Virus record (IMG/VR): IMGVR_UViG_3300025121_000013
Length of the DNA: 64,000 nt
Reading direction: 5' to 3' (one strand)
DNA from: a virus
Lineage: Duplodnaviria > Caudoviricetes
The translations under genes were made by a program, and so were the position numbers. Below are positions 41,030 to 46,942 of the stretch, piece by piece. The notes beneath the pieces are model-generated. The model did no database searches. It saw only the letters and a list, made by a program, of their open reading frames with translations, and had not been told where the DNA came from. The first letter of the stretch is position 1. Each line of letters opens with the position of its first letter.

Positions 41030-42141
41030 GAAACAGCAAGACCTCCTTCTTCAGCATCATCCTCAACTATTTCTCCATTAAAAAATGTATCGATAACCGC
41101 TTCAAGTTGATCCCTATCAATTTCAAAACAAAGACCTCTATCTATCAATTCATCGACCAACATACTTGGTTCAAAATCTTCAGTTTTATAAAACTCAGTT
41201 AGTGCATTTATTTTCTTTTGATTTTCATGTCGTAATTTTTGATCGGTGGTTGGCGTTTTTCCAGCCCAATCAATTAACCCATAATTTTTATAATAATTGG
41301 AGCCACCAGCTCCAAATAAATAATCTCCATAACCTTCATAAAATTCTCTATAAGCCCCACTAAAACGTCCACTGTATTGAAAATCATTTACTTTAAGTTC
41401 TCCAATATTTTCTTTAAGTTGAGAAATTTTCGGCTGATTTATTCTTCGATCCCAACAGGTGGGAATATTAATTTTCTTTAAATCTTTTTCTTTAAACATA
41501 AATTTATTTGAAGGAGTTGTATTATATCCTTGGATGCGATAATCCCATGTTTTTGTAAACTCCTTTATAACCGTTAAGCCCTCAAAATAATCTTTGGGAT
41601 CATACATAAACCTTTTTCCATTTACCACACAACTACAAGAAATTGTAAAAGTTTTTTCATCACTAAAATTTCCAAAAGTGACATGTAACCCATCAAAACC
41701 AAATTCATCTGAATCATCGACTCCGGAATGAAATGCTGAAAATCCAGCATGACTATGAATAGTTCCAATTAATGTATACCCCCTAAAAGTTTTAGGCTTT
41801 AAATATTTAATTGAAGCAGATGAAATATTTTGAAAGGGACAATATAATCTAAACCCTTTTTCCGGAGAATAAAAAAGCATTACAATACTTTCTGAATGAT
41901 ATTTTTCATACATTTTTTTCATAAATTTATAAGTTAATCCCCCTATTTCTTTAGGTAATTTTGGAACGTTTATTACCCCATAACTTTTGATTTCTTCCAG
42001 ACAAGAAATTTTATCGACCGGAACCAAAGCATCAACGATAGGAGAATGTTTTTTAATAAAAATTCCATTTTTTCCGATAAGATATGCAATGTCTTCTTTT
42101 GGTATTAGTTTTTTATCATCGTATAAATATATTGGGAACAT
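41026..42141 (-). CDS. JAB/MPN+ metallopeptidase with long C-terminal extension
   Basis: SESIVML (catalytic E), GTIHSHAGFSAFHSGVDDSDE (HxH...S..D). Confidence 0.9.
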   Translation of the reverse strand: MFPIYLYDDKKLIPKEDIAYLIGKNGIFIKKHSPIVDALVPVDKISCLEEIKSYGVINVPKLPKEIGGLTYKFMKKMYEKYHSESIVMLFYSPEKGFRLYCPFQNISSASIKYLKPKTFRGYTLIGTIHSHAGFSAFHSGVDDSDEFGFDGLHVTFGNFSDEKTFTISCSCVVNGKRFMYDPKDYFEGLTVIKEFTKTWDYRIQGYNTTPSNKFMFKEKDLKKINIPTCWDRRINQPKISQLKENIGELKVNDFQYSGRFSGAYREFYEGYGDYLFGAGGSNYYKNYGLIDWAGKTPTTDQKLRHENQKKINALTEFYKTEDFEPSMLVDELIDRGLCFEIDRDQLEAVIDTFFNGEIVEDDAEEGGLAVS

Positions 42142-44585: not shown

Positions 44586-46942
44586 TAAGCTGCTCCTTTT
44601 AAAACCTCTTCAGGAATAAAATAATTCGGAATCAGCCCTAATAAATTATGTTCTATGTAATTTTGATTTAAAAATACATTTTTTTCACCAGTCAACCTTG
44701 GAAAAATTATTCCTCTACAAATTTGATTATCTAAATCGTCTTCATCTATTTTTGGAATAAAGTTTTTTTCTCCCATGTACAATTTTATTTGTCCATTTAT
44801 AATTTTTTCTGTAAATCTTCCGTTTATATATTTGAAGGACACTTCTCCGTCCAAATGAGGGACTCTTGCTTTTGGGCCTTCAACTTTAGGAAATTTCTCT
44901 CCTATTGCATGACTATTTAAATCTTCAATTTTCAATTCATTTATTGAAACGACATTAAAAGATTGAATTAAATTGTGTGGCCAAACAGTCATTCCATTTG
45001 ACATGTAACACAGTGGAATATTTTTAAATCCATCTACAAAACCTATTAATTTGTATATTTTATTTTTTACAAAACCGGGAATATCACTATTTATTGCTTT
45101 AAATTCTATACCGCTATATAACTCATTGTATTTCATATAAAATTTATTTATAAATGGATTAACATTTGTATTATAAATAAGTAGAGGAGATATTTTACCA
45201 TCTTGATAAGTGACCTCTAAATTATTATTTCTTGAAGATGTAATTTTTTTGATTTCATATACTTTATATTTTGTATTTCTTGTTTCGATAACAAGATCAC
45301 CCTCTTTAAAAGAAAAATTCTTTCTACCAGAAATATTTATCGAATTATTTTTTAAAACATTTGAAAAATCTAAAAAAAGGTCGAAGCCGTTATCTACAAA
45401 CTTATAATCATCGATACTATAATATTCGCTTATATGAAAAATCTGTGCTCCGTTATAGAAAAACTCTTCTTTGTGTGTTTTAACTTTTTCTATAGGAACG
45501 AGATTTTTTGTATCTGGGATAATGGTATTATTATTATTATATCCATCTCTTAAAGTTTTATACATTATATTTCCATCTTTTATAAAAATATCTGACAATT
45601 CAATTTCATAAGGAGTATGACCTGACCTGAAATAAAAATATTTCTTATTTAATTTGATTGACTCACCACAATAATCTTTACTAGAATCTTGATATTTTTC
45701 AAAAACTAAATTTTTGATATTAAAATTAAAATAACTATTATCTAATTTTAAATATTGACTTCCATCTGCCCTTTGGACAATTCTATTAATCGATCCAAAA
45801 TAATTCATAGGAGAAGTGATATGAATTAAATCTCCTCTAGAAAATTCTAAATTATTAATCAAAAACTTTTTCTTAATATAATAATCATAAGTATCATGAG
45901 AAATTTTCTTTGTTAATTTAATTTCTTTCGTTTCATTTGTGTCATAATCTATAACAGATATATTGTTTTCTAAAAATATATTTAAAATATATAAAACTTT
46001 ATCCCCTATTACAATCTCATCACCAATATCCAACCTGATAATATTATTATCTTTCTGAATTTCTAAATATGTCAATGTTCTTTCTATCCTAGAAAAATTA
46101 TCTGATTCAATATTCGAAAAAGAACTTTGTATTCTTTCAAAAAGAGTTTTAACAGTTATTAAATTTTCACCATTAAAAAGATTACTCAACAAAGAATCCG
46201 CTTGGACAAATTTTTTATCATAAATAAATAATGGATCAATCTTTGTATTATAATTCCAAGCTAAAATTGTTCCTAACTCATTTCCACTTTCACTTGTATA
46301 TTTTCTTCCATTATAATAATCTGTATTAAATTCAGATTCCCAAAAAACTCTTAATTGATTTAAAATTGTGCTCCCTATCGTATCTCCAGAAGTTCTCGGG
46401 CAACATACCGATCCAGTAAACATAATATTTGACAAAGGTGGCAAATATAATTTATCATCAAAACTATTTAATTGTCTTGGAGCAATGTAAGCTGATAATG
46501 ACATTGAGTCAAAAACATTTTCCTTTATTTTTCTAATTACCCCAGTAAAGATGACAAAAGGAAAAGATAATCGAACCGCATATCGTCCCTTTATTTTATA
46601 AATATTTTTCAAAAAGAGTTCAACAATTTCTGGATTCTGTATCATTCCTTTTTCATAATCAATCAATGCTGGTGAAACATAAACTGTTTTTATTTGAGGA
46701 GGTTCCTCAAATAAAAATTTCCATTGATTTCCAGAAATTTTTTTCAAAAACCTAACCCCAGGTAACATCAATAAATCTTCTGAATCTTTATTAATAAATT
46801 GATTTGAAAATTTTGCAGCAGGAAATTTTACATCTCCAAGTTTTAAAAATAGATCATCTTTTTTATAACCATATTCCTTTATCACAAAATTTTTATCGAT
46901 AACTATTCTTGAATCTAACTTATAGATCCAATTATTTTCCAT
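44585..46942 (-). CDS. large protein with prokaryotic E2 (family D-like) domain, paralogue B
   Basis: LSFPFVIF, LYLPPLSNIMFTGSVCC, VFWESEFNTD, GFVDGF..IP..YMSNGMTVWP. Confidence 0.7.
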   Translation of the reverse strand: MENNWIYKLDSRIVIDKNFVIKEYGYKKDDLFLKLGDVKFPAAKFSNQFINKDSEDLLMLPGVRFLKKISGNQWKFLFEEPPQIKTVYVSPALIDYEKGMIQNPEIVELFLKNIYKIKGRYAVRLSFPFVIFTGVIRKIKENVFDSMSLSAYIAPRQLNSFDDKLYLPPLSNIMFTGSVCCPRTSGDTIGSTILNQLRVFWESEFNTDYYNGRKYTSESGNELGTILAWNYNTKIDPLFIYDKKFVQADSLLSNLFNGENLITVKTLFERIQSSFSNIESDNFSRIERTLTYLEIQKDNNIIRLDIGDEIVIGDKVLYILNIFLENNISVIDYDTNETKEIKLTKKISHDTYDYYIKKKFLINNLEFSRGDLIHITSPMNYFGSINRIVQRADGSQYLKLDNSYFNFNIKNLVFEKYQDSSKDYCGESIKLNKKYFYFRSGHTPYEIELSDIFIKDGNIMYKTLRDGYNNNNTIIPDTKNLVPIEKVKTHKEEFFYNGAQIFHISEYYSIDDYKFVDNGFDLFLDFSNVLKNNSINISGRKNFSFKEGDLVIETRNTKYKVYEIKKITSSRNNNLEVTYQDGKISPLLIYNTNVNPFINKFYMKYNELYSGIEFKAINSDIPGFVKNKIYKLIGFVDGFKNIPLCYMSNGMTVWPHNLIQSFNVVSINELKIEDLNSHAIGEKFPKVEGPKARVPHLDGEVSFKYINGRFTEKIINGQIKLYMGEKNFIPKIDEDDLDNQICRGIIFPRLTGEKNVFLNQNYIEHNLLGLIPNYFIPEEVLKGAA

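Follow-up and report, generated by a model that had tools for sequence, protein, structure and literature searches.

The question raised by this locus is why a phage should carry, side by side, two genes for proteins of about 800 residues in which an E2-like domain is followed by a long additional region, and what their products might do. The locus lies in a 64,000-nucleotide stretch of viral DNA (IMG/VR record IMGVR_UViG_3300025121_000013, Caudoviricetes), referred to here as the window. An earlier note on this DNA had described the two proteins, P0001 and P0002, as tandem paralogues and had proposed that their extensions of about 500 residues are built-in substrate receptors, with different targets for each copy. 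The explanation that we favor, and consider probable, is that both are active E2-type carriers of a phage ubiquitin-like protein (Ubl), each with a built-in adaptor, and that they subfunctionalised after the duplication.

Two tandem paralogues within a conserved cassette

The two genes and their neighbors are arranged as follows.

46932..47294, minus strand: protein of about 120 aa upstream, overlapping the start of P0002; positionally conserved partner
44585..46942, minus strand: P0002 (785 aa), upstream paralogue, big E2-like protein; open reading frame, family HMM score 419.9 bits
42141..44585, minus strand: P0001 (814 aa), downstream paralogue, big E2-like protein; open reading frame, family HMM score 322.4 bits, full-length model
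41026..42141, minus strand: JAB/JAMM peptidase (371 aa), TAATG-coupled to P0001; Prok-JAB E 2.9e-5, PRTRC_A E 2.5e-9
40337..41029, minus strand: minimal ThiF-type E1 (230 aa); ThiF E 3.3e-20, PRTRC_ThiF E 5e-12 over nearly the whole profile
39814..40251, minus strand: Rho_N/HeH domain plus beta-grasp Ubl (145 aa), ending in ...KPAGRKG-F; Rho_N E 1.8e-9
38235..39122, minus strand: second, degenerate ThiF-like protein (295 aa); thiF_fam2 E 3.7e-7, synteny conserved
37804..38238, minus strand: small HPN-x8-C protein (144 aa); H72, P73, N74 and C83 invariant in 37 orthologues

The two large open reading frames lie on the minus strand where the earlier note had placed them, and the kinship of their products is far above chance (BLASTP E 1e-18, 23% identity over 660 aligned residues). 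An assembly artefact as the source of the duplication is ruled out by this low identity at the protein level. The P0002/P0001 and P0001/JAB junctions are each a TAATG with an AGGA-type ribosome-binding site upstream, and the three genes are translationally coupled. Among the sequence blocks reported to be shared by the paralogues, LSFP.(I/V).F, FW.S.FN.D and I.(Y/F)PR stand as written and the others needed small corrections. The block given as P(L/S)N-x7-C reads PL(P/S)N-x7-C (PLPNIEPSGKIC and PLSNIMFTGSVC), EP..KT is approximate (EPQKRT versus EPPQIKT in the two copies), and GFVDGF...SNG.T.WP is broken in P0001 by a 6-residue insertion.

The same block was observed in about 40 viral contigs, in the order radical SAM protein, WYL_2, a protein of about 125 aa, big E2, JAB, ThiF E1, HeH-Ubl with a C-terminal Gly, second ThiF, HPN..C protein, and RNA polymerase (RNAP) beta'. 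The loci were located with a subset of the family alignment, the 87-member version being too diverse. In 38 of 42 loci, WYL_2 and the big E2 are separated by an open reading frame of 117–136 aa; the corresponding upstream protein of about 120 aa gave no Pfam match. The C-termini of 38 Ubl orthologues are KG, or KG followed by 1–5 residues. The cassette is a probable ubiquitin-like tagging kit common to a clade of uncultured huge phages, and the big E2 is a core part of it. The HeH-Ubl gene is also a GC island, with 62% GC and a GC3 of 81%.

The gene content bears on a different explanation, namely that the cassette is a sulfur-carrier or cofactor pathway, in which a ThiS/MoaD-type Ubl thiocarboxylate would be formed via ThiF for nucleotide- or DNA-modification genes, the Cys of the big protein would relay persulfide, and the barrels described below would bind nucleic acid. 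A radical SAM gene does flank the block in nearly all loci, a QueD-like PTPS is encoded nearby in the window, and QueC directly follows the Ubl in L005-type loci. Likewise, the best NCBIfam matches of the ThiF protein are MoeB and ThiF adenylyltransferases, and the C-terminus of the Ubl has one Gly preceded by Lys in place of Gly-Gly. However, three features of the cassette typify conjugation systems, namely the JAB peptidase, the capped Ubl C-termini and the UBC-like domain; its JAB and ThiF proteins match PRTRC models over nearly their entire length, a HeH/Rho_N domain would be unusual on a sulfur carrier, and no rhodanese or cysteine desulfurase was found in the block. We consider a sulfur pathway very unlikely.

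The E2-like domain and the barrel array

The big proteins begin with a UBC-like domain (residues ~50–250), which is followed by an array of barrels.

46157..46765, minus strand: UBC/E2-like domain of P0002 (about aa 60–262), aligned to the P0001 E2 domain, with N172 and C180 kept
43836..44441, minus strand: UBC/E2-like domain of P0001 (aa 49–250); domain model, Prok-E2_D match, E2 structural neighbors
46403..46405, minus strand: codon of the predicted catalytic Cys180 of P0002, in SNIMFTGSVCC; column invariant in 137 family members
44109-44111, minus strand: codon of Asn159 of P0001; invariant in 137 sequences
44085..44087, minus strand: codon of the predicted catalytic Cys167 of P0001, in PNIEPSGKIC; invariant in 137 sequences
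42510..43730, minus strand: SH3-fold barrel array of P0001 (aa 286–692); DSSP of the model, structural and Foldseek matches

The E2 family D signal noticed earlier is real. Against the Pfam model Prok-E2_D (PF14460; gathering threshold 25 bits), the excised P0001 domain (aa 45–252) scored 27.6 bits, with only positions 82–146 of the 171 in the model, its catalytic half, aligned; full-length P0001 scored 24.5 bits, and P0002 by itself remained below the threshold (18.2 bits at aa 162–220). The same model was matched by 85 of 114 N-domains of the family (E up to 0.1, best 6e-9), with no other family recurring, and by 28 of 50 full-length members.

The model of the P0001 domain (pLDDT 88, pTM 0.85) has the element order of a UBC-like fold: a helix, a four-strand meander, the active-site loop, and C-terminal helices. 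In an unbiased structural scan of 48,161 chains, the best 50 rows were mostly UBC, UEV or RWD proteins, including UbcH10 (Z 5.1, 114 aligned residues) and UbcH7 (Z 5.0) as well as Cap2 (Z 3.8) and CdnG-E2 (Z 3.9). On a second look, 47 of the top 50 rows were E2s, covered over nearly their whole chains (Z 4.2–5.2, 112–123 aligned residues, rmsd ~5 Å). The domain also matched an ESM Atlas cluster named Prok-E2_D, 56% of it viral, with a TM of 0.72. A Foldseek search of the PDB gave no significant row, E2s being scattered through the list, and neither the domain nor its profile matched any PDB sequence. Since the structural Z-scores are modest, we describe the fold as a divergent UBC fold; the assignment of about 200 N-terminal residues around the Cys to the UBC/E2 type nevertheless holds, and the earlier note is not refuted on the ground it had named, a predicted fold around the Cys unlike UBC.

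Asn159 and Cys167 are invariant across 137 family sequences. Both paralogues keep the N-x7-C arrangement, in which the His of HPN is replaced by Leu (LPN, LSN); the N-to-C spacing of 8 is that of HPN...C in UbcH5 (N77, C85). In complex prediction, the E2 domain paired with the Ubl beta-grasp scored 0.50 and the best control 0.01, with at least 82% of contacts agreeing between runs and a partner pLDDT of at least 79. Of 80 solved complexes 58 attained the mark applied, as did 2 of 110 mismatched pairs, and scores of 0.60 or less comprised only 7 of the 80 solved complexes but both of the passing mismatches. Part of the pass may be due to resemblance to E2-Ub complexes already solved, and we take it as a slight indication that the E2 domain may bind the Ubl.

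The remainder of the chain after the E2 domain (about 550 residues) consists of SH3-fold (Tudor/KOW/BAH-like) barrels and a tail. In P0001, barrels were delineated at residues ~288–350, 367–435, 446–501, 575–600 and 619–683, the last being the best conserved. Structural comparison related residues 367–435 to BAH, Tudor and KOW domains (Z 7.3–5.2) and residues 619–683 to CarD/SH3 (Z 5.0, rmsd 2.2 over 54 residues), and hhalign aligned barrel 1 with barrel 4 at a probability of 86%. Foldseek with the full-length model found multi-barrel proteins, including SPT5 KOW arrays, at a TM of ~0.07, which is a hint of tandem barrels only; an ESM Atlas look-up with aa 600–814 returned nothing usable. Such barrels are a partner-binding kind of module and, as modeled, fit a built-in adaptor, that is, an E2 with E3-like target choice.

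In the mechanism that we propose, the JAB peptidase would cut the one-residue cap (Phe) off the HeH-Ubl, the exposed Gly would be adenylated by the minimal ThiF E1, and the Ubl thioester would move to the invariant Cys (C167 in P0001, C180 in P0002), 8 residues past the invariant Asn. The array of four to five barrels would grip either the target or a partner that is always the same, and one chain would thereby combine the E2 and E3 roles. Of this scheme we infer the thioester chemistry, the E1-to-E2 pairing, the action of the barrels as adaptors, and the separate targets of the copies.

The proposal of built-in receptors is thus compatible with the barrel folds, but the extensions are not an idiosyncratic add-on to a small E2. 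A profile search gave 1634 cluster representatives of the family, and among the 150 matches listed the members are mostly 780–990 aa long; an architecture of ~850 aa is what members of this large phage family normally have. A word-based search with the N-domain profile, a limited method restricted here to proteins of 114–475 aa, gave one fragment and no stand-alone short form, and a word-based homologue search with P0001 returned only a fragment of P0001 itself. By tblastn, P0001 and a typical member, P0016, had no match in 50,697 GenBank phage records, and the family is unknown among the cultured phages of that collection. No relative was found by a pattern-based scan of low sensitivity over 185,579 species genomes, a PHROGs search gave no match, and a literature search found no paper on this family or on any phage-encoded giant E2. 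The family, which joins a family D E2 domain to a barrel array, is undescribed so far and appears to be distant kin of the known E2 family D.

The operon also holds a possible second E2-like protein, the 144-aa HPN-x8-C protein, which from its motif is a possible mini E2-like component, and the big proteins might for this reason act one step later, as E3-like relays. The small protein, maybe together with the second ThiF-like protein, would then be the E2, and the big proteins would be downstream Cys-relay E3-like ligases (HECT/RBR-like) or Ubl-binding scaffolds; they could even be substrates themselves, with the true E2 step left to the small protein and the second ThiF. The HPN and Cys of the small protein are invariant in 37 orthologues, always inside the block, and the cassette contains two E1-like genes. 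Moreover, the motifs run in the same order in the small protein (HPN..C..FNLD) and in the big proteins (LPN..C..FN.D); therefore the cassette holds two related Cys modules. However, the small protein resembles E2s at the motif level only, the comparisons with E2s being non-significant (PDB E 0.31; hhalign to the big-E2 domain E 0.07–0.13, probability <1%). Its orthologues, at 108–181 aa, fall short of the usual length of a complete UBC fold, neither Pfam nor NCBIfam gave a match for it, and it is the big protein, not the small one, that directly adjoins JAB, ThiF and Ubl and bears the family D signal. We judge a relay or scaffold role of the big proteins fairly unlikely.

Divergence of the two copies

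Two big-E2 copies are present only in this window, and every other locus examined has one. The duplication is lineage-specific and tandem, its uniqueness holding among the loci sampled; a single-copy core gene of ~850 codons would have been duplicated in this lineage, after which the copies diverged fast. In the family tree P0001 and P0002 are sisters (SH-aLRT 94) on branches of 3.7 and 4.2 substitutions per site. The strong divergence and the sister grouping agree with the old duplication suggested in the earlier note, but the grouping is in doubt because both copies are on very long branches, and it may be long-branch attraction. Recent transfer of one copy from another member of the clade was rejected, since the nearest relatives of each copy are at most 22% identical to it.

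The big E2 is the fastest-evolving protein of the cassette: between loci L001 and L049, identity is 60% for RNAP beta', 52% for ThiF, 52% for Ubl and 26% for the big E2. P0001 and P0002 are 26% identical in the E2 domain; the figure falls to 18–22% for the middle barrels and rises to 46% for aa 606–700. Such divergence could mean that one copy is in decay (a pseudo-enzyme or a gene without function) and that the pair has no division of labor. The long branches are consistent with decay, as is the retention by the copies of only about 60% of the highly conserved columns of the family (among columns conserved in at least 85% of other members, n = 56, P0001 keeps 33 and P0002 keeps 35); P0001 also scores lower than P0002 against the family HMM (322 against 420 bits). 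Yet both frames are intact over ~800 codons in a compact coupled operon, and every strictly invariant residue is kept in both (P116, N159, C167, F635 and N666, along with the near-invariant W189 and R758). The losses are spread over the copies in a complementary way and not piled in one: E64 is lost in P0001, and R70, R611, D652 and Q704 in P0002. R141, conserved in 99% of other members, is lost from both, which could reflect relaxed constraint and not new function. Decay of one copy is, in our view, very unlikely.

Judged by their sequences, both copies look functional yet diverging, and their fast, divergent evolution with different losses would most simply be read as a division of targets or sub-functions. 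That each paralogue has targets of its own is something we only infer from the divergent barrels and the complementary loss of conserved residues. A more far-reaching possibility, which we hold to be unlikely, is that the big proteins are self-contained E2/E3 hybrids that attach the HeH-Ubl, as a nucleic-acid-binding tag, to particular proteins of the host or the phage (such as those of transcription or the nucleoid), and that the duplication made two ligases with differing substrates. It is hinted at by the Tudor/KOW/CarD-like barrels and by the constant location of the cassette, immediately upstream of the genes for the phage RNA polymerase. If true, it would be a first example of E2/E3 diversification via gene duplication in a virus of prokaryotes.

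Comparison with known conjugation systems

What has been characterised so far of prokaryotic ubiquitin-like conjugation is mostly host defence, as in Bil and CBASS Cap2/Cap3. In the present case, uncultured huge phages of a large clade carry conjugation-type machinery as a block of core genes, and the ~850-aa protein is both the biggest and the fastest-evolving component of it. If the big proteins choose targets, they are the key to what these phages tag and why, for instance to take over host functions, to counter defences, or to control phage transcription. The duplicated pair is a natural experiment, in which the two copies share a catalytic core and differ in their barrels.

The closest named relatives of the big proteins, by sequence, appear to be Prok-E2_D (PF14460) and PRTRC protein B (TIGR03737; PRTRC_B E 0.002), the sole sequence family matched by the N-domain. 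PRTRC protein B is the E2-like protein of a ParB-related, ThiF-related cassette of plasmids and integrative and conjugative elements (ICEs), for which no functional work was found among the titles listed in a literature search. The neighboring JAB and ThiF proteins likewise match PRTRC_A and PRTRC_ThiF (E 2.5e-9 and 5e-12). However, the scores are far under the NCBIfam equivalog cut-offs (PRTRC_A 37 versus 101.8 bits, PRTRC_B 17.3 versus 131.45, PRTRC_ThiF 45.6 versus 144.75), and the cassette is therefore best described, from sequence comparison, as a distant relative of PRTRC (TIGR03734-03742) and not a member. The PRTRC_B model has 228 positions, whereas the big proteins have 785–814 aa with the added barrel array. 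PRTRC resides on a plasmid or ICE with ParB; the present cassette belongs to a lytic-looking huge phage and lies beside its RNA polymerase genes, and no ParB-related partner or PRTRC protein C to F was found among the cassette proteins scanned.

With Bil (BilABCD) and CBASS Cap2/Cap3 the cassette shares its logic, with a ThiF-fold E1, a UBC-fold E2 whose Cys is catalytic (predicted here), a JAB peptidase, and a C-terminal Gly on the Ubl or target. PADLOC gave weak matches of the ThiF protein to BilD and E1-E2 models (E 2e-3 to 3e-4) and no match for P0001, P0002 or JAB, so that a BilB-type E2 and a BilC-type JAB were not recognised. In the published Bil and CBASS systems, which serve host defence, an E2 is either a small protein or joined to an E1, and SH3 barrels are not its fusion partners. 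The present cassette, in contrast, is a block of core phage genes, and its Ubl bears a HeH/Rho_N domain.

For the barrels, the middle and C-terminal parts of P0001 superpose on the SPT5 KOW repeats, the triple Tudor of SETDB1, and the RNAP-interacting domain of CarD/Mfd, with scores in the range for any small barrel and with no sequence similarity. The fold by itself does not point to one binding specificity (protein, nucleic acid or RNAP).

In the eukaryotic E2/E3 hybrids UBE2O and BIRC6, a UBC domain and substrate-binding regions are combined in one chain, with no separate E3, and this single-chain arrangement is the working model proposed here for the big proteins. The sequence kinship with these hybrids is only at the level of the UBC superfamily and the extra domains are unrelated; in the big phage proteins the UBC domain is N-terminal and the barrel array is the proposed adaptor.

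The gene pair and its setting

The window has about 27% GC, essentially every long ORF lies on its minus strand, and the genes it carries are those of a very large phage:

unsplit RNA polymerase (RNAP) beta' and beta
topoisomerase II subunits
SbcCD-like nuclease
helicase
QueD-like and radical SAM enzymes

The RNAP genes (32077-37819, minus strand; beta', 908 aa, then beta, 1002 aa) encode proteins only about 30% identical to their nearest cultured-phage homologues, from Rhizobium phages of the RHph_TM type. The two genes for big E2-like proteins are:

42141-44585 (-), P0001, ORF of 814 aa
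44585-46942 (-), P0002, ORF of 785 aa

TAATG overlaps join P0002 to P0001 and P0001 to the next gene, and an AGGA-type ribosome-binding site precedes each. The proteins share 23% identity over 660 aligned residues (BLASTP, E 1e-18), which bears out the earlier note's description of two tandem paralogues of ~800 aa. The motif blocks quoted there were found as well, but the one given as P(L/S)N-x7-C in fact reads PL(P/S)N-x7-C, and EP..KT holds only approximately.

The N-terminal domain and the barrel array

Prok-E2_D was the sole Pfam family recurring in the big E2-like proteins, matching 28 of 50 members at full length and 85 of 114 N-domains after excision (best E 6e-9). Residues 45-252 of P0001 score 27.6 bits, over the gathering cut-off of 25, against which full-length P0001 and P0002 reach 24.5 and 18.2. 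The AlphaFold2 model of the P0001 N-domain (114-sequence alignment) is confident (pLDDT 88, pTM 0.85), and its elements run as three extra strands, two helices, a strand meander, a loop and helices. Foldseek gave no significant PDB match to this model. In an exhaustive VIA scan of 48,161 chains, UBC, UEV and RWD proteins dominate the match list, with Z of 5.1 for UbcH10 (114 aligned residues), 5.0 for UbcH7, 3.9 for CdnG-E2 and 3.8 for Cap2. In a structural second look, E2 enzymes filled 47 of the top 50 rows, aligned over almost the whole length (Z 4.2-5.2, rmsd about 5 A). The nearest ESM Atlas cluster is 'Prokaryotic E2 family D domain-containing protein' (TM 0.72, 56% viral).

Only P116, N159 and C167 are invariant in the N-domain (137-sequence alignment). 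UbcH5-type E2s carry an HPN...C signature with an Asn-to-Cys spacing of eight; the big E2s have the same spacing, but Leu in place of His. Taken together, the Pfam matches, predicted model, structural scans and invariant residues identify the fold around the Cys as UBC-like and highly diverged, in line with the E2-like domain that the earlier note had proposed. The result that the note said would count against its reading, a predicted fold unlike UBC around this residue, was thus not obtained.

The full-length model has a pLDDT of 68, with the N-domain and residues 610-690 above 90. A low-confidence linker (residues 250-290) is followed by successive small beta-barrels and, after the last, a poorly modelled tail:

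about aa 288-350, barrel
about aa 367-435, barrel
about aa 446-501, barrel
about aa 575-600, barrel
about aa 619-683, barrel

Among the Foldseek matches to this model are the triple Tudor domain of SETDB1 and KOW arrays of SPT5. In VIA, the barrel at residues 367-435 resembles those of BAH, Tudor and KOW domains (Z up to 7.3), and the one at residues 619-683 resembles the N-domain of CarD, SH3 and FeoA (Z 4.6-5.0). Profile-profile comparison supports an internal duplication of some barrel segments, as for barrels 1 and 4 (probability 86%, E 5e-6). All these scores are within the generic range for small barrels and so define the fold class only. Conservation across the family is highest in the E2 domain and residues 560-680, while the middle barrels and tail are variable. 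The well-conserved barrel at residues 606-700 probably contacts a constant partner, and the variable barrels are probably the carriers of specificity.

The conserved cassette and its proteins

The gene order around the big E2 is fixed in about 40 independent viral contigs:

1, radical SAM enzyme
2, WYL_2 protein
3, ~125-aa protein
4, big E2-like protein
5, JAB peptidase, 300-627 aa
6, ThiF E1, about 230 aa
7, Rho_N/HeH-Ubl (ubiquitin-like), C-terminus ...AG(K/R)KG with or without 1-5 further cap residues
8, membrane protein, sometimes present
9, second, degenerate ThiF
10, small HPN..C protein
11, RNAP beta'

The ~125-aa protein (46932-47294, minus strand) is fast-evolving and without a family match. 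Its gene overlaps the start of the big E2 gene and lies between the WYL_2 and big E2 genes in 38 of 42 related loci; it is likely a partner or regulator. In the JAB proteins (41026-42141, minus strand, and orthologues) the N-terminal peptidase part of ~190 aa is conserved and the C-terminal extensions are highly variable between loci. The Ubl gene (39814-40251, minus strand) is the sole strongly GC-rich gene in the window, with 62% GC and 81% GC3 against medians of 27% and 18%; its orthologues are also enriched relative to their own loci (56% against 34% in L001, 39% against 26% in L005). The second ThiF-like protein (38235-39122, minus strand) ends in ...SGAA, its L001 counterpart (15273-16226) in ETGAA and P0002 in ...KGAA, a G-A-A tail that P0001 and the big E2s of other loci lack.

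When the E2 domain was modelled in complex with the beta-grasp portion of the Ubl next door, the prediction scored 0.50, against 0.01 for the best control, with contacts agreeing to at least 82% between runs and partner pLDDT of at least 79. Of 80 solved complexes, 58 attain the mark for such predictions, as do 2 of 110 mismatched pairs; only 7 of the 80, but both of these mismatches, do so at scores of 0.60 or under. The prediction lends weak support to this pairing. Our leading reading, with somewhat better than even confidence, is that P0001 and P0002 are both active carriers of the E2 type, each with its own adaptor built in. Their working partners would be the adjacent JAB, ThiF and HeH-Ubl, and the two would have subfunctionalised following a tandem duplication specific to this lineage.

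The small HPN..C protein (144 aa; 37804-38238, minus strand) adjoins RNAP beta' on the upstream side and has a conserved FNLDxCYFTPW block. Its H, P, N and C are invariant, as HPN-x8-C, in 37 orthologues (alignment A9). Its motif order is colinear with LPN..C..FN.D of the big E2 domain, and no statistically significant similarity to E2s or the big proteins was found; judged by its motifs, it may be a mini E2-like paralogue. That it is itself the E2, with the big proteins serving as Cys-relay E3-like ligases or scaffolds, we regard as unlikely.

In L005-type phages (L005, 14570-15139, and L003-L006) the gene immediately after that for the Ubl encodes QueC (7-cyano-7-deazaguanine synthase), and a ThyX gene is nearby; in the window, the genes flanking the block are those for a QueD-like PTPS (53545-53973) and for radical SAM enzymes. 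The Ubl cassette thus sits amid genes for nucleotide modification. That it is a sulfur-carrier pathway linked to these neighbours is an explanation to which we give little credence.

Duplication, spread and comparison with known systems

By family HMM, each of 49 other loci has one big E2 and only the window has two. P0001 and P0002 are sisters in a quick maximum-likelihood tree (SH-aLRT 94), a grouping for which long-branch attraction is possible given their very long terminal branches (3.7 and 4.2 substitutions per site). Identity between the window and L001 (57% for beta', 50% for ThiF, 42% for Ubl) resembles the L001-L049 distance; by these comparisons the window lineage as a whole is not especially remote. 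Nevertheless, the window copies score only 60-80 bits against other members, compared with 194 bits between the L001 and L049 big E2s, so both have evolved faster than the single-copy orthologues. The copies agree at 26% of positions across the E2 domain, at 18-22% across the middle barrels and at 46% over residues 606-700. Decay of one copy seems improbable. Both retain every strictly invariant residue; highly conserved columns are kept at 33 of 56 in P0001 and 35 of 56 in P0002. Their losses complement each other in part (E64, P224 and F226 in P0001; R70, R611, D652 and Q704 in P0002), and R141 is absent from both.

When 1.84 billion cluster representatives were scored with a profile built from five homologues, 1634, 696 and 210 proteins were recovered at E limits of 1e-3, 1e-10 and 1e-30. 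Nearly all of the 150 matches listed are 780-990 aa long and align end to end, so the ~800-aa architecture is the usual form of a large family rather than a fusion peculiar to this locus. Metagenome assemblies and IMG/VR viral contigs as long as 248 kb are the sources of the relatives; none was found in 50,697 GenBank phage records, nor in 185,579 species genomes scanned at low sensitivity. We found no paper on the family or on a phage-borne giant E2.

Among known systems, the PRTRC cassette is linked to the window JAB (PRTRC_A, E 2.5e-9), ThiF (PRTRC_ThiF, E 5e-12) and, weakly, E2 domain (PRTRC_B, E 0.002), all three far under the NCBIfam family cut-offs. The big E2 is best described as a family-D/PRTRC_B-like E2 joined to an array of SH3 barrels; its gene belongs to the core set of a clade of uncultured huge phages and is duplicated in the window. 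The components are from known superfamilies and the logic of the system is that of known prokaryotic Ubl cascades.
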